DNA from: Pseudomonadota bacterium | GTDB lineage: Bacteria > Pseudomonadota > Gammaproteobacteria > Burkholderiales > Burkholderiaceae_C | Assembly: GCA_021792835.1 (NCBI GenBank) | Contig: JAJYTY010000001.1 | Coordinates: forward strand, 7,722 to 71,721 | Reading direction: 5' to 3' | DNA length: 64,000 bases | Shown here: piece by piece, positions 8,958-27,128 of the stretch | Position numbering within the stretch: position 1 is the first letter of the stretch | Layout: the number at the start of each line of letters is the position of its first letter | The notes under the pieces: generated by a model | The model's database searches: none | What the model saw: only the letters and a program-made list of their open reading frames with translations | What the model was told of the DNA's origin: nothing | Program-made: the position numbers and the translations under genes

Positions 8958-9951
8958 ACGCCTGAACCTGCTGTGGCTGCAGTCCGGGGGCTGCGGCGGG
9001 TGCAGCATGTCCCTGCTCAACGCCGAGGGGCCGGATCTGTACGCGGCCCTCGACCTGGCCGGCATCGACCTGCTGTGGCACCCGTCGCTGAGCCAGAGCA
9101 GCGGGGACGAATTCCTGGATCTGCTGCGCGCCATCGTGCGGGGCGAACAGCGCCTGGACATCCTGTGCCTGGAAGGCTCCGTGGTGCATGGGCCGGACGG
9201 CAGCGGGCGCTTTCACATGCTGGCCGGCAGCGGCCGACCGATGCGCGACTGGCTTGCCGATCTCGCCGCCCGTGCCCGCTACGTGGTGGCCGTGGGCAGC
9301 TGCGCGGCGTTCGGCGGCATCACCGCGGCCGGTGCAAACGAAGCGGAGGCCAGCGGACTGCAGTACCGCGGCGCGGTCCCCGGGGCGCTGGTGCCGGCGG
9401 ACTGGGCCTCGAACGGAGGTCTTCCGGTGGTCAACGTCGCCGGCTGTCCGGTCCATCCCGGCTGGGTCACCGAGGCCCTGGCGCAGCTCGCGCAGGGGGA
9501 ACTGGGGCGCGACGCACTGGACGAACTTGCCCGCCCGCGCAGCTACACCGACCACCTGGTGCACCACGGCTGCCCGCGCAACGAATACTACGAATTCAAG
9601 GCCAGCGCGGAGAAGCCCTCCGACCAGGGCTGCATGATGGAACACATGGGCTGCCTGGGCACGCAGGCGCGGGCCGACTGCAACGTGCGTCCCTGGAACG
9701 GCGGCGGCTCCTGCCTGAAGGGCGGGCACGCCTGCATCAATTGCACGGCCCCCGGCTTCGAGGAGCCCGGCCGGCCCTTCACCGAGACCCGCAAGATCGG
9801 CGGCATCCCGGTCGGGCTGCCCAGCGACATGCCCAAGGCCTGGTTCGTCGCGCTGGCCTCGCTGTCCAAGGCGGCGACGCCCGAGCGCCTGCGGCGCAAC
9901 GCGGTGTCGGACCACATCCAGGTCCGGCCTTCGATCAAGCGGAGCAAGTGA
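8950..9951 (+). CDS. hupU: Regulatory (H2-sensing) hydrogenase small subunit HupU/HoxB
   Basis: WLQSGGCGGCSMS, no Tat signal, GCPVHP, HHGCPRNEYYE, CINCT.PGF. Confidence 0.94.
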   Translation: MAERLNLLWLQSGGCGGCSMSLLNAEGPDLYAALDLAGIDLLWHPSLSQSSGDEFLDLLRAIVRGEQRLDILCLEGSVVHGPDGSGRFHMLAGSGRPMRDWLADLAARARYVVAVGSCAAFGGITAAGANEAEASGLQYRGAVPGALVPADWASNGGLPVVNVAGCPVHPGWVTEALAQLAQGELGRDALDELARPRSYTDHLVHHGCPRNEYYEFKASAEKPSDQGCMMEHMGCLGTQARADCNVRPWNGGGSCLKGGHACINCTAPGFEEPGRPFTETRKIGGIPVGLPSDMPKAWFVALASLSKAATPERLRRNAVSDHIQVRPSIKRSK

Positions 9952-9952
9952 G

Positions 9953-11392
9953 ATGACAAGGCGCATCCTGGGCCCCTTCAACCGCGTCGAGGGCGACCTG
10001 GAGGTCCAGGTCGACATCGAGGACGGGGCTGTGCGCGCGGCCTGGGTGAATTCGCCCCTCTACCGCGGCTTCGAATCCATGCTCGTGGGCAAGGATCCGC
10101 GCGACGCCCTGGTGTACACGCCGCGCATCTGCGGCATCTGCTCGGTGTCGCAATCGATGGCCGCCGCGGCGGCGCTGCGCGCCGCCGCCGGGCTGCAGGC
10201 GGCGCGCAACGGCGAGCTCGCGTCCAACCTGGTGCTGGCCTGCGAGAACCTGACCGACCACCTGACCCATTTCTACCTGTTCTTCATGCCCGATTTCGCG
10301 CGCGCCGAGTACGCGCGCCATGCAGGCCACGCCGAAGCCGCCACACGCTTCACGGCGCAGACCGGCAGCGCGTCGCGGGACATGCTGCCGGCGCGCGCCG
10401 GCTTCCTGCATCTCACCGGCATCCTGGCGGGCAAATGGCCCCACAGCCTGGCGCTTCAGCCGGGGGGCACCACGCGGGCCATCGAAGCCCAGGAAAAGGT
10501 GCAGCTGCGCAACGTCGTCGGGCTGTTCCGGCGCTTTCTCGAGCAGACCCTGTTCGACGACCGGCTGGAAAACGTCGCCCGCATCGACTCGGCCGCGGCG
10601 CTGCGCGATTGGGCCGCTGCCCATCCGCGCGGCGACTTCGCCCATTTCCTGCGGATTTCCGAGCGACTGGACCTGCGGCGCCTGGGGCGCGGAGCCGGGC
10701 GCTTTCTCAGCTACGGCGCCTACGAGGTCGACGGCGCGCATCTGTTCGCCCCGGGCAGCTGGAACGGCAGCCCGCGCGCGCTGGACGCTGCGCGAATCAC
10801 CGAGGACCTGTCCCATGCGTGGATGGCCGGGCCCGCGCAGCCGTCCCACCCCTCGCAGGCCAGCACGCGCCCCAGCCTGGACAATCCCGCGGCCTACAGC
10901 TGGTGCAAGGCCCCCAGGCTGGGTGGAGACGTGATGGAGACCGGTGCGCTGGCGCGCCAGGTGGTGCACGGACATCCCCTGGCACGCGAGCTGGCGCGCG
11001 ACGGCGGCGATGTGCATGCGCGCGTGGTCGCGCGCATGCTGGAACTGGCGCTGGTCCCGCCGGCGATGGAAGCCTGGATCGCGCAACTGCGGCCCGGAGA
11101 GCCCTTCTGTCACGTGGCCACGCTGCCGGAGGAGGCCGAAGGCGCGGGGCTGGTGGAAGCCGCGCGCGGCAGCCTGGGACACTGGCTGCGCATCCACAAG
11201 GGACGCATCCACACCTACCAGATCATCGCCCCGACAACCTGGAATTTCTCGCCCCGGGACGCCGGCGGCACCCCGGGCGCGCTCGAGCAGGCGCTGGTGG
11301 GAACGCCGGTGGCCGCCGACGGAGCGCCCGGCGCGGCGGTGCAGCACGTGGTGCGGTCCTTCGACCCCTGCATGGTCTGCACCGTGCACTGA
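9953..11392 (+). CDS. hupV: Regulatory hydrogenase large subunit HupV/HoxC
   Basis: GPFNRVEGDLE, RICGICS and DPCMVCTVH followed directly by a stop (no cleavable C-terminal extension, typical of sensory hydrogenases). Confidence 0.95.
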   Translation: MTRRILGPFNRVEGDLEVQVDIEDGAVRAAWVNSPLYRGFESMLVGKDPRDALVYTPRICGICSVSQSMAAAAALRAAAGLQAARNGELASNLVLACENLTDHLTHFYLFFMPDFARAEYARHAGHAEAATRFTAQTGSASRDMLPARAGFLHLTGILAGKWPHSLALQPGGTTRAIEAQEKVQLRNVVGLFRRFLEQTLFDDRLENVARIDSAAALRDWAAAHPRGDFAHFLRISERLDLRRLGRGAGRFLSYGAYEVDGAHLFAPGSWNGSPRALDAARITEDLSHAWMAGPAQPSHPSQASTRPSLDNPAAYSWCKAPRLGGDVMETGALARQVVHGHPLARELARDGGDVHARVVARMLELALVPPAMEAWIAQLRPGEPFCHVATLPEEAEGAGLVEAARGSLGHWLRIHKGRIHTYQIIAPTTWNFSPRDAGGTPGALEQALVGTPVAADGAPGAAVQHVVRSFDPCMVCTVH

Positions 11393-11415
11393 CGGGACGC
11401 CGAAGGGAACTCGCC

Positions 11416-13776
11416 ATGGGTGCCGCCGAAGCTCGGATCGCCCGCGTGCAGCAAGCCGATGCGCTGCTGCTGCGGGTGCGCGGGGTCGTGCAGGGCGTGG
11501 GCTTCCGGCCGATGGTCTGGCACGTCGCGCGCGAGCTGGGCCTGGTCGGCCTGGTCTGCAACGACGGCGTCGGGGTGCGGATTTCGGCCTGGGGACCGCC
11601 CGACGCCCTGGTGCAACTGCCCGCGCGGCTGCGCGCCCAGTGCCCGCCGCTGGCGCGCATCGATGCCATCGAAGGCCTCGGCCGCCCATCCGGCGCCGCC
11701 CCCGGCGACTTCCGCATCGTCGCCAGCCTGCAGGGCGATGCGCGTACCGAGGTGGCGCCCGACGTGGCGACCTGCGCACCCTGCCTGGCCGAGGTGCGCG
11801 ATCCAAGCTCGCGCCGCTGGCGCCATGGCTTCGCCAACTGCACCCATTGCGGGCCGCGCTATTCGCTGCTGCGGGCTCTTCCCTACGATCGCGCGAGCAC
11901 CGGCATGGCCGGCTTCCCGATGTGCGCCGACTGCGCGGCGGAGTACGCGGATCCGGCGGACCGGCGCTTTCATGCCCAGCCCATCGCCTGCCCCGCCTGC
12001 GGTCCCCGGCTGTGGCTCGAAGTGCAGGGACGGCGCGTCGATGCCGATCCCGTCGAGCGGGCGGTCGCGCTGCTGCGGGACGGAGGCATCGTGGCCGTCA
12101 AGGGAGTCGGCGCCTACCACCTCGTGGCGCGCGCTGATTCGCCCGAGGTGGTGCGCGAGCTGCGCAGGCGCAAGATGCGCCCGCACAAGCCGCTGGCACT
12201 GATCGCGCGCGACCTGGACGTGGTGCGCCGCTACGCCTCGCCGACCCCGGGGGAGGAACAGGCGCTGGGATCGCCGGCGGCTCCGGTCGTACTGCTGGCG
12301 GCCCGCGGGCCCGAGCGGCTCGCCGACGAGGTGGCTCCGGGGACCGACCTGCTCGGCTTCGTGCTGCCGATGAGCCCCCTGCACCACCTGCTGCTGGCGC
12401 CATTCGACTCGCCCCTGGTGTTCACCTCGGGCAACGCCGCCGGGCGGCCGCCTTGCACCGGCGAGGCCGAGGCACGCGAGGACCTGCGGGGCATCGCCGA
12501 TGCCTGGCTGATGCACGACCGGCCGATCCTGCATCGCCTGGACGACTCGGTGCAGCGCGAGGTCGGCGGCGCGATGCAGACCCTGCGACGTGGGCGCGGC
12601 CTCGCGCCGGAGGCGCTTGCGCTGCCCGAGGGCTTCGCCGACGCCCCGCCGATCACCGCGCTGGGCGCGCAATGGAAGAACACCGCCTGCCTGCTGCGCG
12701 AGGGTCGCGCGGTGCCCTCGCAGCATTTCGGGGATCTGGGCGACAGCGCGGCCGCGGCCGACGCCGCGCGCGAGTTGCAACGCCTGAGCGAATTGTTCGG
12801 CCACGACCCGCAACGCGTCGCGGTGGACCTGCATCCCGACTACGAATCGACCCGGCGCGGCCATGCGATGGCCGCCGCGGCCGGGCTGGAAGTCGAGTCC
12901 GTCCAGCACCACCATGCGCATGTGGCCGCCTGCATGGCCGAGTACGGGCATTCCCTGGGCGCGGGCCCGGTGCTGGGACTCGCCCTGGATGGCTCGGGCC
13001 TGGGCGACGACGGACGCATCTGGGGAGGCGAACTGCTGCGGGTCGACTACACCCGTGCCGTGCGGGTGGCCGGGCTGCGGCCCACCGCGCTGCCCGGCGG
13101 CGACGCCGCCGCCCGCCAGCCTTGGCGCAACCTCGCCGCGCAGCTGCTGGCAGCGCCCGAGGCGCAGGCACTGCTCGATCGATACGCCGCCGACGAGGCC
13201 CTGCGCTGCCTGGCCGACAAACCCATGGCGCTGCTGGCCCGCATGATCGAATCCAGCCGGCATGCGCCGCCGGCTTCGTCCAGCGGGCGCCTGTTCGACG
13301 CGGTGGCCGCCGCGCTCGGACTGGTTGCGCGGGAACAAAGCTTTGAAGGCCAGGCGGCGATGGCCCTGGAGTCCCTGGCCGCGCGCGCACGCGATGACGG
13401 AGCCTACGAACTGGGCCGGCTGACCGGCGGCCAGATGCCGTATCTGGACCCGGCCCCGCTGTGGCCCCAGCTGCTGGCCGACCTGCGGCGAGCAACGCCC
13501 GCGCCGACGGTGGCACGGCGCTTTGTCCGCGGGCTCGCCGCCGGCTGGGGGAAGCTGCTGCGCGAGGAACTGGCACGCCACCCCTATGCCGCGGTGGCCC
13601 TGACGGGCGGAGTGTTCCAGAACGCCTTGTTCACCGAACTGCTGTGCCGCGAACTTCGCCCGACCGGTGTCGCGCTGTGGACCCATCGACGCGTGCCGGC
13701 GAACGACGGCGGCATCGCCCTCGGGCAGGCCGTGGTGGCCGCGGCGCGCGCCCTGCAACCCGAATGGAGGAACTGA
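11416..13776 (+). CDS. hypF: Carbamoyltransferase HypF (full length)
   Basis: Acylphosphatase domain (VRGVVQGVGFRP), two CxxC zinc fingers, KGVGAYHL, HHHAH, DGSGLG, NDGGIALGQ. Confidence 0.96.
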   Translation: MGAAEARIARVQQADALLLRVRGVVQGVGFRPMVWHVARELGLVGLVCNDGVGVRISAWGPPDALVQLPARLRAQCPPLARIDAIEGLGRPSGAAPGDFRIVASLQGDARTEVAPDVATCAPCLAEVRDPSSRRWRHGFANCTHCGPRYSLLRALPYDRASTGMAGFPMCADCAAEYADPADRRFHAQPIACPACGPRLWLEVQGRRVDADPVERAVALLRDGGIVAVKGVGAYHLVARADSPEVVRELRRRKMRPHKPLALIARDLDVVRRYASPTPGEEQALGSPAAPVVLLAARGPERLADEVAPGTDLLGFVLPMSPLHHLLLAPFDSPLVFTSGNAAGRPPCTGEAEAREDLRGIADAWLMHDRPILHRLDDSVQREVGGAMQTLRRGRGLAPEALALPEGFADAPPITALGAQWKNTACLLREGRAVPSQHFGDLGDSAAAADAARELQRLSELFGHDPQRVAVDLHPDYESTRRGHAMAAAAGLEVESVQHHHAHVAACMAEYGHSLGAGPVLGLALDGSGLGDDGRIWGGELLRVDYTRAVRVAGLRPTALPGGDAAARQPWRNLAAQLLAAPEAQALLDRYAADEALRCLADKPMALLARMIESSRHAPPASSSGRLFDAVAAALGLVAREQSFEGQAAMALESLAARARDDGAYELGRLTGGQMPYLDPAPLWPQLLADLRRATPAPTVARRFVRGLAAGWGKLLREELARHPYAAVALTGGVFQNALFTELLCRELRPTGVALWTHRRVPANDGGIALGQAVVAAARALQPEWRN

Positions 13777-17412: not shown

Positions 17413-20400
17413 ATGAAAACCATCAGAATCTTCATCATGGCCGGCACGGTCTTGGTTTCGGCCCTGTTTTTCGGCAGCAGCTATGTCATTGTGTCGCATG
17501 CCTTCACCCGGGCGATGCAGGCGAACTCCCTTCGGACGTCGCGCGTCATGGCCCAGTCCACCTTCAACTCGATGTTCCAGTTGATGAGCACCGGATGGAC
17601 GCACACGCAGGCTGAAGCATTCCTGCGCGCCAGCGACGGGGCCATGCAGCATTCCGATTTCACCCAGCAGATCTTCCGCGGCAGCATCGTCTCCGCGCGC
17701 TTCGGCCCCATCCCGCAAGCCCCCGTGGATGCCGCGGTCGCACAGGTGTTCCAGACCGGAAAGCCGGAGCAGCATGTCAGCGGAAACAGCACGCGCTATG
17801 TCTTTCCGCTGCGTGCAGAAACACAATGTCTGCGCTGTCATACCAACGCCCAGGTGGGCAGCGTGCTCGGCGTCATCGACGTTCGCCAGAATCTGGAGCC
17901 GTCCATCCAGGCCGCACGACGGGACTTTTTCGAGTCCATGCTGTGGGTCTTCCCCTTTCCGATCCTGGGCTCCTTGCTGTTGACGGTCTTCGTGGACTGG
18001 CGCATCGACCGATCCATGGGCATGCTCAAGCGCAGCATGGACCAAATCCATCAAATATCGGATTTAAGATTAGTCCGATTTCAGCCCATCGATTTGTGGT
18101 TTTCCGATCTCAACACCATCTTTGGCCAAATTGGTCAGCTCATCGACAAACTCCGTGGCATCGCCATCGAAAAGGACTACCTGGCCGATCATGATGCGCT
18201 GACTGGCCTGCCCAACCGCCGGGGACTGCTGGACCATCTCTCCCGCACGCTGGCGCGCGCCCGTCGTCACGGCGGGCGCGTGGTGATCGGCATGCTCGAC
18301 CTGGATGACTTTAAGCCCATCAATGACACCTGGGGCCATGCGGCGGGCGATGCGCTGCTGCGCGAGTTCGGCCGCAGACTGCGGGCCGCTTTGCGCGAAA
18401 CCGATGTGGTGGCGCGCCTGGGCGGCGATGAATTCGTCGTCATCCTTGACCAAGCCGCGGCCAGCGACGATCTGCCCGCCGTTCTGGCGCGCCTGGAGTC
18501 GGCAATCACCGCGCCCTATGTCCTGCCGAGCGGACACGAGGCCCGCATCGGCGTGAGCCTGGGCGTGACGCTTTACCCCGAGGACGACGCCGAACCGGAA
18601 ATCCTGCTGCGCCACGCCGATGAGGCGCTGTATGCCATCAAGGAGCGCAAGGCCACCCGTCAGCAAGGCTGGATGCAGTGGCACGCACTGCCGGCCCCGA
18701 ACCAACCCAGCGAAGACGATGCGCTGGTCGTGCCCGGTTACGGACAGGGGGCCGCGGCGCTGTTGACCCGTGTGCGGGAGTCGCTTCTGAGCGCCACCTC
18801 CGCGTTCGTCACGACCTTTTACGCCACCCTGGCGCTGCAAGCCGAAGCGCAAGTCATCCTGCAGCGCTTGAGCCCCGATGAATTCACCCATCTGCGTGAG
18901 CGCCAACACCAACATCTGGGACACATTCTGGCCCCCGATCTGACCGAAGCGGCACATCGACTGAGCGCGCACCGCCTGGGGCGCATCCATGCCCTGATCG
19001 GGCTTGACCAGGGTGCCATTATCGAGGCCATGCATCTTTATCTCGATACCCTGAAGCAAGAGATCGGCAAACTGAATCTAAGGCCCTTCGAACGCAGCCA
19101 TTTGGTGAATCTGCTGTCGCGCCGACTGCTCACCGAGATGGAAGAGCAGATCAAGGGCGAGATGGACGTCACGCAAAGGCGCGAGCATCTGCTGCTGTCC
19201 CTGCATGCCCAGAAAACCGCGGCGTCCAACTGGCCGGACTTCCTGCGCATCATGGTCGATCAACTCGTGGCCCTGGAGGGGATGCAAGGCGCCGGTGTTG
19301 CCCGGCCCGATAGCGGTGGGCAGTTCGTCTTCGAATACACCGCCGGGGGGTTCGGCGCCTATTTGCAGGCGATCGACGAACATCAGTTGATGTCGCGGGT
19401 GACCGACCCCGGCGCGAACTTCGAGCACGTTCCTTATTTCCGCGCCTGGCGCAGTGAAATGATTGAGACGACGACCAGCTACGCTACCAATCCCGACATC
19501 GCCCCTCTGCGTGAAGCCGCTCGGGCCGCGGGCATCCGCAGCAGCGCGGCAGTCCCGCTGAAGGATGCGCAGGGCCATGTGTTTGCCGTGCTGATCCTGT
19601 TCGGCAGCTACCCCGGCGTATTCGAGACCCCCTCGGCGCGAACGTTTCTGGCGGCCCTGGGCCTGCTGGTGAGCGAGCGGCACCATGAGACCTCGCGGGA
19701 ACAGAAGATGCCGCCGATCTCCGCCGAACGCCGGCATGCGCTGCGGGATCGCCTGTATCGCGGCGCTCTGGAGCTGCACTACCAGCCGGTGGTGGATTTG
19801 CGCTCCGGCAAACCCGATCTGGTCGAGGCCCTGGCGCGTCTGCGGCTGGAGGACGGTACGCTGGCCAGTCCCGCGGAGTTCCTGCCCGGATTCGGCGAAA
19901 CCGAGTTTGTGCGCCTCTTTCGGGATGGATTGCACCAGGCCCTGACCCAGCTCCAAGCTTGGGACGCGCAGGGGTTGAAGCTTGTCGTGAGCCTGAACCT
20001 GCCCCCAGCCGTGCTGATCCATCCCGAGTGCTCCACCTGGGTGCGACAGGCCTTGCAGGAGCATGGGCTGGCGCCTTCCCGCCTGCGTCTGGAGCTGTTG
20101 GAAACGGAAGAACTCGATGACGTTTCTGGGCGGGATGCCGCCCTACGGGCGCTTTCCATCCTCGGCGTGCAATTGCTCATGGATGATCTCGGCACGGGCT
20201 ACAGCAGTCTGCTGCGCTTACGCACGCTGCCCTTCTCCGCGGTGAAGATCGATCAGGGACTGGTGCGCGAGGCTCCGCGGGATCCCTTGCGGGTCATTGG
20301 CTTCATCGGCTCGCTGGTGCGTCTGGCGCAGAGCCTGGACTTGCGTGTGATCGTGGAGGGGCTGGAAAGCCCGGCGCTGGTCGAGGCCGCCGCCATTCTG

Positions 20401-20784
20401 GGCGCCACCGCCGGCCAGGGCTATGCGCTGGCGCGTCCGATGCCGGCGGCCGAGGTGCCGGGATGGATCCAGGGTTTTGAGCTCCGATTGGATCCGCGGG
20501 ATCCGCAGACGGCCTTGGGCGCCTTGGCCGGGCACTGGAGTTGGGAGCAGGGGGTGCGGTACGCGGGGGCGCGCGCGATGCATGACGCGGGCACGTGTGC
20601 GCTGGGCAGTTTCGTCGTGTCGCAAGGACTCGGCGGATCCGCTCTGGATAGCGCCCACCGGCAGCTGCATCAAGCCGCTGTCGAGCACGGGCCCGAGAGT
20701 GCCCAGTACCGGCAGTGGGCGCAGCGGGTGGTCGCCGCGCTGATGGCGCTGAGCAACGGGTCCATGGGAGCACCGACAGATTAA
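17413..20784 (+). CDS. Membrane c-di-GMP enzyme: TM - periplasmic CxxCH domain - TM - GGDEF - globin (protoglobin) - GAF - EAL - CZB-like tail
   Basis: CLRCH at 17827-17841; RETD I-site plus GGDEF; FYATL...LGRIHALIG globin motif; EAL with DDLGTGYSS and EGLE; C-terminal HW...CALG...HRQLH. Confidence 0.88.
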   Translation: MKTIRIFIMAGTVLVSALFFGSSYVIVSHAFTRAMQANSLRTSRVMAQSTFNSMFQLMSTGWTHTQAEAFLRASDGAMQHSDFTQQIFRGSIVSARFGPIPQAPVDAAVAQVFQTGKPEQHVSGNSTRYVFPLRAETQCLRCHTNAQVGSVLGVIDVRQNLEPSIQAARRDFFESMLWVFPFPILGSLLLTVFVDWRIDRSMGMLKRSMDQIHQISDLRLVRFQPIDLWFSDLNTIFGQIGQLIDKLRGIAIEKDYLADHDALTGLPNRRGLLDHLSRTLARARRHGGRVVIGMLDLDDFKPINDTWGHAAGDALLREFGRRLRAALRETDVVARLGGDEFVVILDQAAASDDLPAVLARLESAITAPYVLPSGHEARIGVSLGVTLYPEDDAEPEILLRHADEALYAIKERKATRQQGWMQWHALPAPNQPSEDDALVVPGYGQGAAALLTRVRESLLSATSAFVTTFYATLALQAEAQVILQRLSPDEFTHLRERQHQHLGHILAPDLTEAAHRLSAHRLGRIHALIGLDQGAIIEAMHLYLDTLKQEIGKLNLRPFERSHLVNLLSRRLLTEMEEQIKGEMDVTQRREHLLLSLHAQKTAASNWPDFLRIMVDQLVALEGMQGAGVARPDSGGQFVFEYTAGGFGAYLQAIDEHQLMSRVTDPGANFEHVPYFRAWRSEMIETTTSYATNPDIAPLREAARAAGIRSSAAVPLKDAQGHVFAVLILFGSYPGVFETPSARTFLAALGLLVSERHHETSREQKMPPISAERRHALRDRLYRGALELHYQPVVDLRSGKPDLVEALARLRLEDGTLASPAEFLPGFGETEFVRLFRDGLHQALTQLQAWDAQGLKLVVSLNLPPAVLIHPECSTWVRQALQEHGLAPSRLRLELLETEELDDVSGRDAALRALSILGVQLLMDDLGTGYSSLLRLRTLPFSAVKIDQGLVREAPRDPLRVIGFIGSLVRLAQSLDLRVIVEGLESPALVEAAAILGATAGQGYALARPMPAAEVPGWIQGFELRLDPRDPQTALGALAGHWSWEQGVRYAGARAMHDAGTCALGSFVVSQGLGGSALDSAHRQLHQAAVEHGPESAQYRQWAQRVVAALMALSNGSMGAPTD

Positions 20785-20794
20785 GGAGGCCATT

Positions 20795-21232
20795 ATGGTT
20801 TTTCCTTCCGGAAAGTCCTGGGACCCCACGTCCCAGCAGTTCGACTACGACCCCAACGATCCGCGGGTGCAGGAGCTGTTCGCCCAAATCGAGAACCTGC
20901 GGCTGGAGAACCGGGGGCAGTTCAAGCCCGAGCGGGTCCAACTGCGCGGGGCCGGACATGGGGCGGGGCCGTTGAAGGATGTGCAGGGGGCACTGATCGT
21001 CAACGACGATGGCCAGGGTGCGATCACTTTGCTGGCCTCCAGGCCCCTGGAGGAGCATCAGTCGTGCTTTGTGAGGCGCCATCTGGGGACGCCCGGGGAG
21101 AGCGAACGCCTCTACGAGGTGCTGCGCTGCCGTCTGGGAACTCGACCCCAGGATGCCGAGAGCAGGATCTGGATCGCCTATCTCAAGATCATGCCTCGAG
21201 CGGGCATCCAAGCCGATGTGCACCGTCGTTGA
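20795..21232 (+). CDS. Hypothetical 145-aa protein coupled to the upstream GGDEF/EAL gene
   Basis: Strong AAGGAGG RBS overlapping the upstream TAA; no family confidently recognised. Confidence 0.7.
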   Translation: MVFPSGKSWDPTSQQFDYDPNDPRVQELFAQIENLRLENRGQFKPERVQLRGAGHGAGPLKDVQGALIVNDDGQGAITLLASRPLEEHQSCFVRRHLGTPGESERLYEVLRCRLGTRPQDAESRIWIAYLKIMPRAGIQADVHRR

Positions 21233-21291
21233 GCGCTTGCCGAGAACCCGAAGAAATAGACGCCACAACCCGATGCGGCATCGGGCTGCCA

Positions 21292-21522
21292 ATCTACACA
21301 ACGAACTACACCACGAACGCGATCGATAGCATCAACGCGCGGCTGCGCAAGATCATCAAGACCCGCGGACACTTCCCCAGCGACGACGCAGGGGCCAAGC
21401 TGATTGGGCTCGCCCTGCGCAACATCACGGCCGACCGGGGCCGCGCGGCGCACAACTGGAAAGAGGCCATGAACCAATTCGCCATCCTCGACGCCGAGCG
21501 ATTCACGAAACCCATTGCGTAA
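21292..21522 (+). pseudogene. IS256-family transposase C-terminal fragment
   Basis: IYTTN(YTTN)AIDSINARLRKIIKTRGHFPSDDA..KLI.LALRNI...W..AMNQFAIL; the N-terminal part is absent and a small 12-nt duplication is present. Confidence 0.9.
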
Positions 21523-21800
21523 GGTGACCACCGACAGGGTTCTGCGGGAAGGTCGTCGGCTCCAATGAGCGAGAGACTGCGGCTCAATGCACCCCAAGGA
21601 AAGGACGCGCGAACCTCAGGTTTCTCCACCGGCGACCCACGCAATCGATCTGCAACGCCTTTGAGCAATGCGCGCCGCCTCGCATTGAATCGCATCATTC
21701 TGTAGCAGTGCACAGCGCCCGATGCGGGCGGGAGATTACGGTCGAGAGCATCGGCGGGCTAGTATTGATTCAAAGAAGCGGCTCATGCTCTTGGCGCCGC

Positions 21801-22004
21801 CTACGCCGCGTGCAATTCCTCGCGAATCACACGCCGCAGCGCATCCAGCGTCAACGGCTCCTTGCTGGAGGCCTCGCGCAATGCGGCATTGATGAGGGTC
21901 TGGTAGCCAAGCCCCTTCTGCTCGGCCTGCTTTTGGAAAGCATCGATCACGTTCGCATCCAGATAAATGGTGATGCGTTTTTTGCCCATCCTGCTATTGA
22001 GCAT
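21801..22004 (-). CDS. BrnA-type (ribbon-helix-helix) antitoxin, orphan and possibly N-truncated
   Basis: KKRITIYLDANVIDAF...GLGYQTLINAALRE motif; no BrnT-like ORF seen upstream. Confidence 0.75.
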   Translation of the reverse strand: MLNSRMGKKRITIYLDANVIDAFQKQAEQKGLGYQTLINAALREASSKEPLTLDALRRVIREELHAA

Positions 22005-22133
22005 AACCGTGGTCCGAGTTTGCCGCCAATGTGTGATCGACAAGGAACGCACGCTCCTGCACTGCCCTGACCTGGAGAGAGAGATCACGGTTGGCCGTCA
22101 CGCGGCTCAGACCGCTCTTTGCAAGCGCCTAGG

Positions 22134-22214
22134 ATGATCGATTTCAAGGGTGAGTACTTCAATCCAGCCAAGCCGCGATCCCGAACGGTCGGGCGGCCGA
22201 GTGCAACAGGAACC
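22134..22214 (+). pseudogene. Possible internally deleted IS6-family relic
   Basis: Starts MIDFKGEYF (IS6 transposases often begin MxxFKGxxF). 22201-22214 read on the minus strand is GGTTCCTGTTGCAC, close to the IS6 IR GGTTCTGTTGCA. Very short evidence. Confidence 0.3.
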
Positions 22215-22308
22215 GTCTGATGGATGCCCCGCAGGGGGCTGTGGTCAAGGTCATCCACGGCTCCCGCAGCGACGGCATTGACCTGAGCTATGCAATGGAA
22301 AAGCCGAG

Positions 22309-22445
22309 CCAGTCTCGCAGACTTCGCTAATCTGTCTCATCTACTTCGCTAATTTTCGCCCGGAAAGTGGCTTCCAGTCCCATTCACTTCGCTTCACTGA
22401 CAGTGGGAGTCACCGACTCGAAGTGAAGGAAATCTGGCGAAGTCG
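22309..22445 (+). repeat. Composite direct repeat, copy A (three 22-bp-type units forward, two inverted)
   Basis: ACTTCGCTAAT at 22321 and 22343, ACTTCGCT at 22386, inverted CGAAGT at 22419 and 22438; collinear with copy B at +1236 bp. Confidence 0.85.
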
Positions 22446-22472
22446 ACGGATTTTCGCGAGGAACGCTTCGTT

Positions 22473-23234
22473 TCAATGACGCTCTTCGCCAGGTCCGGCC
22501 CGCGGCGCGGCCTCGATCTGGCGGGCCAGCTCGAACATCCAGTCCTTGTCGTAGGCCGATGAGCCGCTCGGGCGGCGCACGTCGTCGAGCACCATCAGCG
22601 TGAAGTCGGTGCCGTTGTCGGCCCAGTCGATCACCGAGCGCACCCGGCCCGAGGGCGCGCGCTGCACGCTGAACACCGCCGGCCAGGGGCCGACCCAGTG
22701 GTGGATGAGTTCGCGCACCATCACCGCAGCGCCCTGGCCGTCGAGTTCGTTCTCTCCGAGTTCGATCACAACGCCGTCGGGGCGCACGAAGTCGCGGCCG
22801 ATGGTGAGTACCGGCTCGCCCGGGCGGGCGGTGTTGTCTCTGAGGCCGAGGAAGCGGAATGCAGAAAGCGCTGTCCCGGCTAGGTTTCGAGGGTGGATCA
22901 ACACCCGTCCCTGGTTCATGCTGGCGAAGTTCGGGTACAGCGCCGCCGCCGGTTCGGGCCACTGCCAGTCGTCCTCGGCGACATCGTCGAAGTCGAATCC
23001 ATCGCGGGCATGCTGGGCATCGAGACGCATGGCTTTTCGCGCCTCCTCCTGCATGGCCGGCGGAAGTTCGTCGATGCCGAAGACGTTGACCTTGCCGATT
23101 TCGACCTGCGGTGGGCCGGAGGCGCCGGGCAGTGGGACGCGCTCGGCGCCGGCGGCCGCGCAGGCGCAAAACGCGAGAAGGAGGGCCGTGGGGCTGCCGC
23201 GGCGTGCGGCATCGTGCAGGGTTCGGGATTTCAT
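22473..23234 (-). CDS. Hypothetical secreted protein (orphan cargo between the two repeats)
   Basis: ~253-aa ORF with a basic N-terminus and hydrophobic signal-like segment (ALLLAFCACAAAGA); no family recognised. Confidence 0.75.
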   Translation of the reverse strand: MKSRTLHDAARRGSPTALLLAFCACAAAGAERVPLPGASGPPQVEIGKVNVFGIDELPPAMQEEARKAMRLDAQHARDGFDFDDVAEDDWQWPEPAAALYPNFASMNQGRVLIHPRNLAGTALSAFRFLGLRDNTARPGEPVLTIGRDFVRPDGVVIELGENELDGQGAAVMVRELIHHWVGPWPAVFSVQRAPSGRVRSVIDWADNGTDFTLMVLDDVRRPSGSSAYDKDWMFELARQIEAAPRAGPGEERH

Positions 23235-23366
23235 GATCACCACTCATCCAGGTTGCAGTCCGTGGCATCCGAGTTCCACATCAGGTATTTGTCTCCGGTG
23301 TGCTGTTTGAGACCCCAGTGGTGCCCGGTGACATGCCCGTACCAGACACGATGGCGACCTTCGTGA

Positions 23367-23456
23367 GTCGTCGTCTACAAAGTCGGGCAGCGTATCGAGG
23401 TCTTGAGCGTGTTGCACTCCCGCCAGCGCTACCCGCAGGGCGGCGAGGATTCATGA
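23367..23456 (+). pseudogene. RelE/ParE-family toxin C-terminal remnant
   Basis: Hand translation VVVYKVGQRIEVLSVLHSRQRYP... matches the RelE/ParE-type IVVYRV...IE.L.VLH.RQ.YP ending. Preceded by an in-frame TGA and an out-of-frame GDLRE. Confidence 0.65.
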
Positions 23457-23544
23457 GTATCGCCGCGAAGGCACGACGCGCACGCCTTGATCAGGGCAAA
23501 GCGGAAAGGCTCCAGTCCGGTGGCGTCAGCTCGGCTCCGCGGAT

Positions 23545-23681
23545 CCAGTTCCGCCGACTTCGCTCATCCGTCGCATCCGCTTCGCTAATGTCCGGCACTA
23601 AAACGCTCACCAGTCGCATCGTCTTCGCTCTGCCGACAGCGGGGGCGGACATCGCGAAGTGAATGCGAATTCGCGAATCAG
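23545..23681 (+). repeat. Composite direct repeat, copy B
   Basis: ACTTCGCTCAT 23557, GCTTCGCTAAT 23579, TCTTCGCT 23622, CGAAGTGAA 23655; 82/119 ungapped identities to copy A by hand count. Confidence 0.85.
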
Positions 23682-23843
23682 GGAATTGCGCTCACTGGCG
23701 ATAGCCAGGCCGCTGCCGACGACGCGCGGTCAGACATGCGGCTGGATCGCGATCGTCAGCTGAACTGCGTGCGGCCTCGATCCGGCGCGTCGCGGGCCTT
23801 GCGAAAAGCTTGGTCGGTCCCTCGCTTGATCGGTCCCTCCGGT

Positions 23844-23860
23844 ATATCAATTGCTGATAT
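23844..23860. promoter_or_regulatory. Palindromic operator candidate for the downstream toxin-antitoxin pair
   Basis: ATATCA-ATTGC-TGATAT perfect inverted repeat 9 bp upstream of ATG 23870. Confidence 0.6.
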
Positions 23861-23869
23861 GCTTGTGCC

Positions 23870-24235
23870 ATGCTGCCATCGCCGGGTCTGTCGACGTTGC
23901 TCGACCTGGACGGGAACATCCTGGACCAGGGGGACGGCTACTGGGTCAAGATTGACGCTCACACGGTCGAGCCGACCGCGGAGATCCCCCATGGCATTCG
24001 CTACTCGCTGACGCTGCATGAACCCTATGGCACGCGGATTCTCGGCTACGACAACGCGCACGCGGTGAAGCCGCCGAAGAAGTTCAAGCATGCCGGGCAC
24101 CGGTACGCCTACGACCACAAGCATCGACACGCCAGGGACCGCGGCGTTCCCTATGAATTCACCGACGCCTACCAACTGCTGAGCGATTTCTTCAGCGAGG
24201 TCGACCGGGTTCTGAAGGACCACAAGCCATCATGA
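23870..24235 (+). CDS. DUF6516-like protein, putative toxin
   Basis: PHGIRYSLTLH...G.RILGYDNAH...DHKH motif typical of DUF6516 proteins (from recall). Confidence 0.75.
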   Translation: MLPSPGLSTLLDLDGNILDQGDGYWVKIDAHTVEPTAEIPHGIRYSLTLHEPYGTRILGYDNAHAVKPPKKFKHAGHRYAYDHKHRHARDRGVPYEFTDAYQLLSDFFSEVDRVLKDHKPS

Positions 24236-24313
24236 GCGCGCCGCGCCGCGCGGCCGCCCCGAAGGCGCGCTCCATTTCGTCGGGGAGCCGAGCATAGCGA
24301 GGAGGGTACAACC

Positions 24314-24664
24314 ATGAGCAAGACCATCGTCATCGGAATCCTGCCGCAGGAGAAGATCCGCGAACGCGTGCTCGCCATCGCCCGCGGCGACTACCGCCCC
24401 AAGCCTTCGGACCCCAAGGTCTGGTTCACCTCGATGCGTTCTCTTGCCGAAGTGCTCAGCGACGACAACCGCGCCCTGCTGCACCTGATCCATGAGTCGA
24501 AGCCGGCGTCGATCAAGGCGCTGGCGGACCTCACCGGGCGCAAGCAGAGCAACCTGTCGAGGACGCTCCGAACCATGTCGCGATATGGCTTCGTCGAGAT
24601 GCTGCGTGAGGATCGGCATGTACGACCCGTGGCGAAGGCCACGGATTTTCGAATCGTGGCGTAG
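24314..24664 (+). CDS. Winged-HTH DNA-binding protein (HVO_A0114/COG4190-like), putative antitoxin/regulator
   Basis: VWFTSMRSLA.VLS..NR.LL..I...KP.SI..LA..TGR..SNLSRTL.TM.RYG.VE; GAGGAGG RBS. Confidence 0.8.
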   Translation: MSKTIVIGILPQEKIRERVLAIARGDYRPKPSDPKVWFTSMRSLAEVLSDDNRALLHLIHESKPASIKALADLTGRKQSNLSRTLRTMSRYGFVEMLREDRHVRPVAKATDFRIVA

Positions 24665-24680
24665 CGTCACCGATGTGGCG

Positions 24681-25606
24681 TCACGCACTCAGCAGCTGCA
24701 CCCCGAAGCGGGCCTGCGAATCGGTCCAGTGCGCGGCGACCTGCCAGCCGGCGCGTGCCGCCAGCTCGGCGAAGCCGTCGACGGTGTACTTGTAGGAGTT
24801 CTCGGTGTGGATGGATTCACCGGCGCGGAATGCCAGGCGCCGGCCGTCCAGCCGCACCGTCTGCGCGCGGCGACTGCGCAGGTGCATCTCGATGCGTCCT
24901 TCGGACTCGTTCCAGATCGCCTCGTGGGCGAAGGACTGCGGGTCGAAGTCAGCGCCGAATTCGCGGTTGATGCGATCCAGCAGGTTCAGGTTGAACGCGG
25001 CCGTCACGCCGCGTGCATCGTCGTAGGCGGCGAGCAAGGTCGCCGGATCCTTGCGCAGGTCGACTCCGACCAGGGCCTGGCGCCCCAGCGCGCGCCAGCG
25101 GCGCAGCAGCGTCAGCGCCTGCGCGGGGTCGAAGTTGCCGAGGGTGGAGCCCGGAAAGAAGAACACCGGGCGGCTTGCCGGCGGCGCGTCGGGGATCGAG
25201 AACGAGGCCGTGAAATCGGCCTGCAGCGGGTGCACCGGCAGTTGCGGAAAACGCTCGCGCACGAGGCGCCGGGCGCCGTCGAGCGCGCTGGGCGAGATCT
25301 CGATCGGCACGAAACCGGCGGGTTCCGGCAGGTGCTGCAGCAGCGTGCAGGCCTTCTCGCCGGAGCCGCAGCCCGGCTCGATGAGCAAGGCGCCGGAGCC
25401 GATGCGCCGCGCCATCTCGGGAGCGTGGCGTTGCAGGATCTCGGTTTCCGCGCGGGTCAGGTAGTACTCCGGCAGTTCGCAGATGGCCTCGAACAGCGCC
25501 GAACCCGTGGTGTCGTACAGGTACGCGCTCGGCAGGCGCTTGGGGTCGTCCAGCAGGCCGTCGAGCACGGCGCTGCGCAGGCGCTCGGCTGCGGCTGGAG
25601 GAAGAT

Positions 25607-25610
<4 letters not shown>
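24681..25610 (-). CDS. egtD: L-histidine N-alpha-trimethyltransferase EgtD
   Basis: PKRLP..YLYD..GS.LFE.IC.LPEYY.TR.E, EPGCGSG.K, FFPGSTLGNF, AFNLNLL.RINRE, TENSYKY. Confidence 0.93.
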
Positions 25611-26869
<1,259 letters not shown>

Positions 26870-27128
26870 GGACGGCTCGCTCGGGTCGATCATAGGCCCG
26901 GCCCGCGCAGGCTTGCACGTCCGGCGCGCCGCCGAGCGTCCCGGCGCACGTTGGCGAAGTCCTTGGCGGACACGCCAGATGTCCGGATCTTGTAAGCCGA
27001 ATCGAGCCTTGTAATGCATTGTGTGCCGGAGTTGCGGTCCGCTCACCGCTGGGAATAGGCTTGCGCGGTCTGCCCTGGAAGCGTCTCGCCGCAGCGCGTC
27101 CAAGGTCCGTCATCCGGAGCCGACCACC

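Follow-up and report, generated by a model that had tools for sequence, protein, structure and literature searches.

The stretch of DNA analysed here, hereafter the window, comprises 64,000 nucleotides of a Burkholderiaceae_C genome (GenBank assembly GCA_021792835.1, contig JAJYTY010000001.1, positions 7,722 to 71,721 of the forward strand) that is available as a draft of 323 contigs. Its subject of interest is a pair of related 119-base-pair (bp) sequences at 22309-22427 (copy A) and 23545-23663 (copy B), which bracket an orphan gene and are followed by a toxin-antitoxin gene pair. A first, sequence-only reading of the window had described them as an ungapped repeat displaced by +1236 bp with 82 of 119 identical positions, and our recount returned exactly 82/119. 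By comparison, 200,000 random pairs of 119-mers drawn from the window shared 34.4 positions on average (standard deviation 5.7) and never more than 63. The unit ACTTCGCTAAT, allowing at most one mismatch, occurs four times in the window against a chance expectation of 0.16, all four occurrences lying within the two copies. A search of Rfam with positions 21500-24800 gave no match.

The geometry of the copies is as first described: two tandem units of roughly 22 bp at a 22-bp pitch, a 21-bp variable spacer, a third unit and a closing ...GACA are followed by 5 bp (GTGGG in copy A, GCGGG in copy B) and then by inverted CGAAGTGAA units. The inverted units are indeed present, but they are better understood as the terminal sites of a neighbouring element's end, and the similarity between the copies runs through them for some 40-60 bp to the right of the boundary originally drawn. 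Taken inward along the minus strand, the left-hand portion of copy A consists of the 8-bp terminus TGTCAGTG, a site of about 21 bp, a 21-bp spacer and two tandem 22-bp sites; the left part of copy B has the same order of site, spacer and tandem sites behind the 8-bp terminus TGTCGGCA, with a different spacer. The right part of copy A is an inverted terminus with close-packed sites (AGTCACCGAC-TCGAAGTGAAGG...GGCGAAGTCGACGG...), and that of copy B a degenerate inverted terminus, GGCGGACATCGCGAAGTGAATGCGAA... (GGCGG...). The features are listed below under the labels E1, E2 and E3, given to the three elements whose ends, in the interpretation developed here, would meet in the two copies.

22309..22402, minus strand: spaced three-site end of E1, which would lie to the left; in complete members of the family this end adjoins tnsA
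22309-22330, 22331-22352, 22353-22373 and 22374-22394, minus strand: site 3, site 2, spacer and site 1 of the E1 end
22395-22402, minus strand: terminus of E1, TGTCAGTG, 8 bp
22403..22407, no strand: GTGGG, one putative copy of the target-site duplication (5 bp); the same letters separate lipA from a transposon end on contig C259
22408..23638, plus strand: E2, putative non-autonomous mini-element of 1231 bp, from compact to spaced end
22408..22470, plus strand: compact end of E2, AGTCACCGAC-TCGAAGTGAAGGAAATCTG-GCGAAGTCGACGGATTTTCG..., of the type adjoining lipA in whichever element stands nearest to that gene
22473..23243, minus strand: E2 cargo, an open reading frame (ORF) of 256 amino acids (aa) without a family match
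23545..23638, minus strand: spaced three-site end of E2; inward TGTCGGCAGAGCGAAGACGATGCGACTGG, spacer, two tandem sites
23639..23643, no strand: GCGGG, putative older copy of the 5-bp duplication, identical to GTGGG at 4 of 5 positions
23644..23700, plus strand: degenerate compact end of E3, presumptively the oldest element, GGCGGACATCGCGAAGTGAATGCGAATTCGCGAATCAGG..., TGTC terminus lost
23870..24664, plus strand: E3 cargo, a TumE-family toxin gene (23870-24235) and a helix-turn-helix (HTH) partner gene (24314-24664)
21801..22088, minus strand: gene for a BrnA-type antitoxin, adjoining the spaced end of E1 on its inner side
about 21240-21522: fragment of an IS256/Mutator-family transposase gene

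A DNA comparison with 60 relatives brought up the repeat in several congeneric genomes. The sixteen ends compared, which come from nine genomes of the genus, can be aligned in register with the pattern TGTC-N6-GCGAAGTGAATG(R)GAC and represent two conserved architectures, a spaced one (sites 1+2) and a compact one with two to three sites at a 20-22-bp pitch. The spaced geometry of 22309-22402 recurs in five other ends. Because one of these lies 516 bp upstream of tnsA in a related locus (L070), the spaced end is the tnsA-proximal one, and the compact end is tnsA-distal and faces the attachment (att) gene. The elements thus have TGT...ACA termini with several repeats of about 22 bp, arranged asymmetrically between their two ends, as is characteristic of Tn7-like transposons, and we predict that the 20-22-bp units are binding sites for the transposase subunit TnsB.

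The att gene is lipA. In the window's own genome an nhmmer profile and a pattern scan located one further copy of the repeat. This is a compact end on contig C259 (inward TGTCACCGACGCGAAGTGAATGAGACTATAGCGAAGACGG), flanked by GTGGG and abutting the 3' end of lipA, the gene for the radical-SAM lipoyl synthase; the G+C content steps from about 62% to about 71% across the boundary between lipA and the end. We collected lipA 3' ends from 24 genomes of the genus. A compact end was present at the 3' end of lipA in 12 of them, ten at the identical nucleotide offset and the others at +1 and -3, and in every occupied genome it was the compact end that faced lipA. The insertions lie in the last codons, and the element sequence completes the lipA reading frame, as in ...G-VTDAK-stop in the window's genome. 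Empty-site alleles, for which the sequence-only reading had recommended a search, were found as uninterrupted lipA ends in 12 of the 24 genomes (13 loci); copies of the repeat genome-wide, in related genomes and beside transposase genes, also suggested there as a check, came to light as well, the latter next to tnsB/tniQ.

Two congeners show complete insertions with exact target duplications. A 4.26-kilobase (kb) element at lipA (L020:14006-18265, contig C243 of genome G020), which carries a methyltransferase gene, egtB and egtD, has TTATT on both flanks, and a 60-kb element in genome G021 has CTATT on both flanks. The latter holds an internal end remnant, which suggests that it is itself composite. 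Where two ends abut, the 5 bp between them match the 5 bp at the lipA site of the same genome, namely GTGGG in G012, CTATT in G021 and TTATT in G020; in the window's genome, the lipA site has GTGGG, copy A GTGGG and copy B GCGGG. That the 5 bp at the junctions follow lipA is what repeated insertion into one fixed site predicts. Genome G012 also harbours, on contig C58, a 1.19-kb mini-element with a DUF3368/UPF0175 toxin-antitoxin pair whose ends are closely related to those joined in copy B: its spaced end is 86% identical to that of E2 over 101 bp, and its compact end 84% identical to that of E3 over 56 bp.

E2 itself occurs elsewhere. Its 1231 bp and one 5-bp duplication make up the 1236-bp period of the repeat. 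A copy in genome G024 (contig C236) directly abuts lipA with an intact TGTC terminus and is 95.6% identical to E2 over 725 bp, the adjacent lipA genes being 85% identical; in genome G022 (contig C82) E2 is found at the same lipA position, again with an intact TGTC terminus, cut after 187 bp (90.9% identity). Since E2 is closer to its G024 counterpart than lipA is, it appears from these identities to be a discrete mobile unit sharing more recent ancestry than its host genes. The compact end of E2 in copy A begins with AGTC in place of the TGTC of these two orthologous copies. Beyond the unclassified 256-aa ORF, E2 contains only decayed sequence. G018 has a homologue of this ORF at a distance of 1.1 kb on the downstream side of lipA, and the window's genome itself has a paralogue, on contig C273. 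A RelE/ParE relic, previously proposed at about 23244-23470, found no Pfam support, even when read through a frameshift. The stretch between the ORF and the spaced end (23244-23544) has broken frames only, and its homologue in G018 is located downstream of an apparently empty lipA site, without recognisable transposon ends.

The position of the array in the window agrees with an origin at lipA. In relatives whose site is empty or sparsely filled, collinearity with the window from about 32,640 onward, in the same orientation, is seen 0.3-8.6 kb beyond lipA on its downstream side, and in the closest of them at about 3-4 kb. Because the core synteny downstream of lipA resumes there, the array at 22.3-24.7 kb is placed where the lipA-downstream island should be, and we infer that it is physically continuous with lipA on contig C259.

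The genes linked to these ends are those of a Tn7-like transposon. Within the element of G021 that is bounded by the shared ends, tnsA, tnsB, tnsC and tniQ follow one another. TnsA matches PF08722 (2.6e-12) and PF08721 as well as NF033179; the 746-aa TnsB has weak matches of the DDE type only (IS481-family transposase at 1e-16, below the cut-off; Mu C-terminal domain at E 0.012); TnsC matches TniB (6e-64) and TniQ is recognised at 5e-31. The gene after tniQ encodes a subtilase on the opposite strand. On contig C259, a tniQ gene (136-1203; PF06527, 7.9e-30) whose product is 77% identical to that of G021 is accompanied at the contig edge by the last 42 codons of tnsC. The earlier statement that the window lacks a cognate recombinase is therefore correct for the window, but part of the cognate transposition genes lies on another contig of the same genome. 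The element at lipA also carries as cargo a gene on the minus strand (C259:1431-5513, L001) for a 1360-aa protein with a match to the defence family PD-Lambda-4_A (2.6e-88) and an MqsA-like HTH domain at its N-terminus. Two other TniQ loci were seen in this genome. A second, unrelated Tn7-like operon on contig C239 (9546-14900; L005:2546-7900) comprises a 248-aa ORF, a 691-aa tnsB-like gene, an AAA_22/TniB-type tnsC and a gene for a 526-aa TniQ protein, with GCGAAGTAA-type repeats upstream, and a third TniQ protein, fused to HTH domains, is encoded at C193:266-1894.

The family extends beyond the genus. With the TniQ of the window's genome as query, 32 loci were retrieved from other genera, with the order tnsA-tnsB-tnsC-tniQ wherever enough contig was present; the genera bearing proper names are all Burkholderiales (Polaromonas, Variovorax, Rhodoferax, Undibacterium, Polynucleobacter, Curvibacter and others). 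In three of the 32, lipA lies within the 10-kb flank, convergent with tniQ, and is directly followed by a TGT-terminated end that is a diverged version of the same repeat. A conserved gene of about 510-570 aa always comes first inside the lipA-proximal end, across several genera of which the named ones are Burkholderiales. Its representative in the window's genome lies on the minus strand of C259 (6333-7931, L001), and homologues are found at L016:1096-2628, L023:11023-12600 and in L071, L075, L078, L081, L085, L092, L094 and L099. The 532-aa product had no match in Pfam, NCBIfam, PADLOC or the Protein Data Bank by sequence and profile searches, and an AlphaFold model built from eight sequences (predicted local distance difference test score 41.6) was too poor for a fold search. 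It could be an additional component of transposition, target selection or immunity.

Taken together, the core genes, the TniQ protein, the asymmetric multi-site ends with TGT/ACA termini, the 5-bp duplication and the orientation-specific att site assign these elements to the Tn7-like class, all of whose defining features appear to be present as far as sequence can tell. We are confident that each 119-bp copy is the junction of two Tn7-like transposons inserted successively at the 3' end of lipA. In the mechanism we propose, a TniQ-family selector and TnsC would guide the transposase TnsA/TnsB to one set position within the final codons of lipA. Entry would be in a single orientation, with the element's compact end facing lipA and supplying a new stop codon and its spaced three-site end, the one nearest tnsA, pointing away, and insertion would create a 5-bp target duplication. 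A later insertion would reuse the same 5 bp between lipA and the earlier element and push the latter away, leaving the pattern seen in the copies: a spaced end closing in ...GACA, then 5 bp, then the TGTC... of a compact end. With increasing distance from lipA, the window would then contain E1, the newest element, which ends at 22402, followed by E2 (22408-23638) and by E3, the oldest, with a decayed end and a TumE-type toxin-antitoxin cargo. Devoid of transposition genes, E2 would have been mobilised in trans. One of the two possibilities raised by the sequence-only reading, tandem and partly non-autonomous ends of Tn7/Tn402 type joined across 5-bp duplications, is borne out by the congeners, with their exact 5-bp duplications, fixed lipA position and tnsA-tnsB-tnsC-tniQ linkage.

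The state of the ends is in keeping with this order. Decay increases away from lipA, the E1 end being intact, E2 having TGT changed to AGT at one terminus and E3 having lost its terminus, and the duplication copies are likewise more degenerate from E1 towards E3, as expected if the newest element adjoins lipA. In Tn7-like elements a mutated terminal TGT/ACA immobilises the element (PMC11014353), and E2 is probably fixed in place through its altered terminus.

Several observations weigh against successive insertion at lipA. The array and lipA are on different contigs (C196 and C259, respectively), and no tnsA or tnsB gene was found in the draft genome, either with Pfam models (Mu-transposase C, rve, TnsA_N) or by tblastn with the G021 proteins. 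The polarity of the tns operon, which reads toward the att gene, is the reverse of that in Tn7 at glmS. Up to egtD (24681) no distal end of E3 can be detected, and nhmmer with a profile built on the outermost 28 bases of 14 ends gave no further ends in the genome, so that neither this end nor the partner of the E1 end was recovered. The DNA to the left of the E1 end is a mosaic in which remains of insertion sequences (IS) are combined with a GGDEF-EAL module of high mobility and with a hydrogenase cluster whose G+C content is core-like, and this blurs the extent of E1. Finally, target immunity in the Tn7-like elements studied (Tn6022, Tn7) strongly disfavours a second insertion beside a resident copy (PMC11014353), so tandem arrays require an immunity that is leaky, heterologous or decayed; in this genus it may be leaky, specific to end subtypes or lost as the resident ends decay. 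A more far-reaching proposal, that in this genus the lipA site works as an integron-like cassette platform built by transposition, on which elements of 1.2-4.3 kb, mobilised in trans by a resident tnsABC-tniQ element, are stacked head-to-tail despite immunity, is offered tentatively, and we judge it somewhat less probable than its negation. It draws on the existence of minimal elements of that size range with one to three genes, represented by E2 with its orphan ORF, the DUF3368/UPF0175 pair of G012 and the methyltransferase-egtB-egtD set of G020.

Other explanations of the repeat were weighed against the same data. Each copy can be drawn as an imperfect 19-bp inverted repeat that has a centre of 7 bp and is accompanied on one side by direct repeats, superficially a core with arm sites, and the cargo of toxin-antitoxin genes and orphans recalls integron arrays; the copies might accordingly be directly repeated recombination sites (res, att, dif-like or attC-like) between which a tyrosine or serine recombinase excises or captures a 1.2-kb cassette as a circle. 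This excisable cassette was the second possibility of the sequence-only reading, and we now give it scarcely any credence. The two halves of the supposed site occur apart as element termini, the compact half by itself beside lipA (12 genomes) and the spaced half by itself upstream of the L070 tnsA gene; the central 5 bp vary between genomes, copying the lipA sequence of each; the boundaries are TGT/ACA; the linked genes are tnsABC-tniQ, with no site-specific recombinase involved; and the two copies are only 69% identical. Integron attC cassettes in particular, with RYYYAAC and GTTRRRY cores and IntI, were rejected on the GACA and TGTC boundaries, the separate occurrence of the halves and the 5 bp that follow the host lipA, IntI not having been searched for genome-wide. 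Also rejected was an abutted-end junction of an IS21 element (istA/istB): the IS21 copy of this genome, on contig C175, has unrelated terminal repeats of the GTCCACGATCA type, and the ends studied here are linked to tnsABC-tniQ.

A closer relative of the preferred interpretation, suggested by the comparison with Tn402 IRi in the sequence-only reading, would make the ends those of a Tn5053/Tn402-type element (tniA-tniB-tniQ-tniR), which transposes replicatively and is resolved at res, in place of a TnsA-containing, cut-and-paste Tn7-like transposon. The strong TniB-family match of the ATPase (6e-64), the short TniQ selector and the terminus TGTCG...GAAGACG..., which resembles the Tn402 inverted repeats, speak for it. 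It is nevertheless very unlikely, because TnsA (PF08722, PF08721; NF033179) is encoded directly before tnsB in G021 and in the loci of other genera, the gene following tniQ is a subtilase gene on the opposite strand and not a resolvase gene, and the target is the end of a chromosomal gene and not a res site. Another view denies the repeat any part in mobility and takes it for a local duplication, or for operator or iteron sites bound by a regulator of the toxin-antitoxin genes nearby; it would fit the operator-like size of the units and their location beside such genes. We hold this to be the least probable of the explanations considered, given that in many genomes these units form the ends of elements at lipA, where target duplications and empty alleles occur as well, that the DNA enclosed by the copies shows no relationship to the DNA flanking them, and that E2 is found elsewhere as a discrete unit.

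Some features of the surrounding DNA deserve mention in their own right. In the distant congener G014, whose LipA is only 79% identical, two to three places match the GGDEF-EAL gene in its 3' portion, together with the 145-aa ORF behind it (18100-21292), at 93% identity over about 3.2 kb (95-96% over the 1.6 kb first searched); judged by this identity, the module has apparently been transferred horizontally. The homology ends at the IS256/Mutator-family fragment. The hydrogenase segment (9000-11500) occurs in only 9 of the 28 congeneric genomes, the closest relatives not being among them, and a paralogous copy, 78% identical, lies at C259:33591-36020, so the hydrogenase cluster of the window looks like an accessory second copy inside the lipA-downstream island. 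Directly after the array, at 24681-27103, the window has egtD and egtB in the orientation opposite to that of G020 and without recognisable ends; in G012 the ergothioneine genes are on the other side of its array.

Our analysis turns an unexplained repeat into the map of a lipA-anchored island built by repeated Tn7-like insertions, in which the window DNA to the left of about 32.6 kb would be accessory DNA at the lipA site. The 3' end of lipA is a candidate new Tn7-like attachment site among the ends of housekeeping genes, one at which the element rewrites the last codons. A full-text literature search found no paper on lipA or lipoyl synthase as a Tn7-like attachment site, the supplementary tables of large surveys being outside that search. 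In this narrow sense the module may still be called undescribed, as was proposed at the outset, but the lipA-targeting Tn7-like family is a known kind of mobile element. It provides mini-elements that occur in nature and have defined ends (about 95 and 60 bp), naturally tandem arrays that should be useful for studying how target immunity is bypassed, and, in the conserved att-proximal gene of about 530 aa, a candidate for a role in transposition.

The closest point of comparison is Tn7 at attTn7, downstream of glmS, together with the genomic islands that Tn7-like elements, with their heteromeric transposase, give rise to. Shared with these are tnsA, tnsB, tnsC and a TniQ-domain selector, TGT/ACA termini with several sites of about 22 bp (spaced with three sites at one end and compact at the other), a 5-bp duplication, a single orientation at one fixed site at the 3' end of a housekeeping gene and a cargo rich in defence and toxin-antitoxin genes. 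Unlike Tn7, the lipA family targets lipA, inserts inside its last codons and supplies the stop codon; its att-adjacent end is far from tnsA, and its tns operon reads toward the att gene; its ATPase is of the short TniB type and its selector a short TniQ (about 350 aa); it has the conserved gene of about 530 aa as the first one within its att-proximal end; and arrays in tandem are common in this genus in spite of the target immunity known from Tn7. The Tn6022/AbaR-type elements at comM in Acinetobacter are likewise Tn7-like and occupy a fixed chromosomal site; they form islands through repeated or nearby insertions and later rearrangements, and copies immobilised by a mutated terminus are known experimentally (PMC11014353). 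They differ in that their att gene, comM, is interrupted and in their accessory selectors, which are of the TnsF and TnsE types. We know of no mini-elements of 1.2-4.3 kb reported for that family. With Tn5053/Tn402 (tniABQR) the lipA family has in common the TniB-type ATPase, the short TniQ, a TGTC... terminus with repeated transposase sites and the 5-bp duplication, whereas those transposons are without TnsA, possess a resolvase and a res site and hunt the res sites of plasmids and transposons, and the lipA family has TnsA, no linked resolvase and lipA as its target. Chromosomal integron arrays, lastly, resemble the lipA arrays in lining up, at one chromosomal site, small units that hold one to three genes each (toxin-antitoxin pairs, orphans, a small biosynthetic operon), with related repeats of about 120 bp as separators and new units added on the side of the site; in the lipA arrays, however, the separators would be pairs of transposon ends with a target duplication and not attC sites, and the machinery is a DDE transposase with an AAA+ regulator and not IntI.

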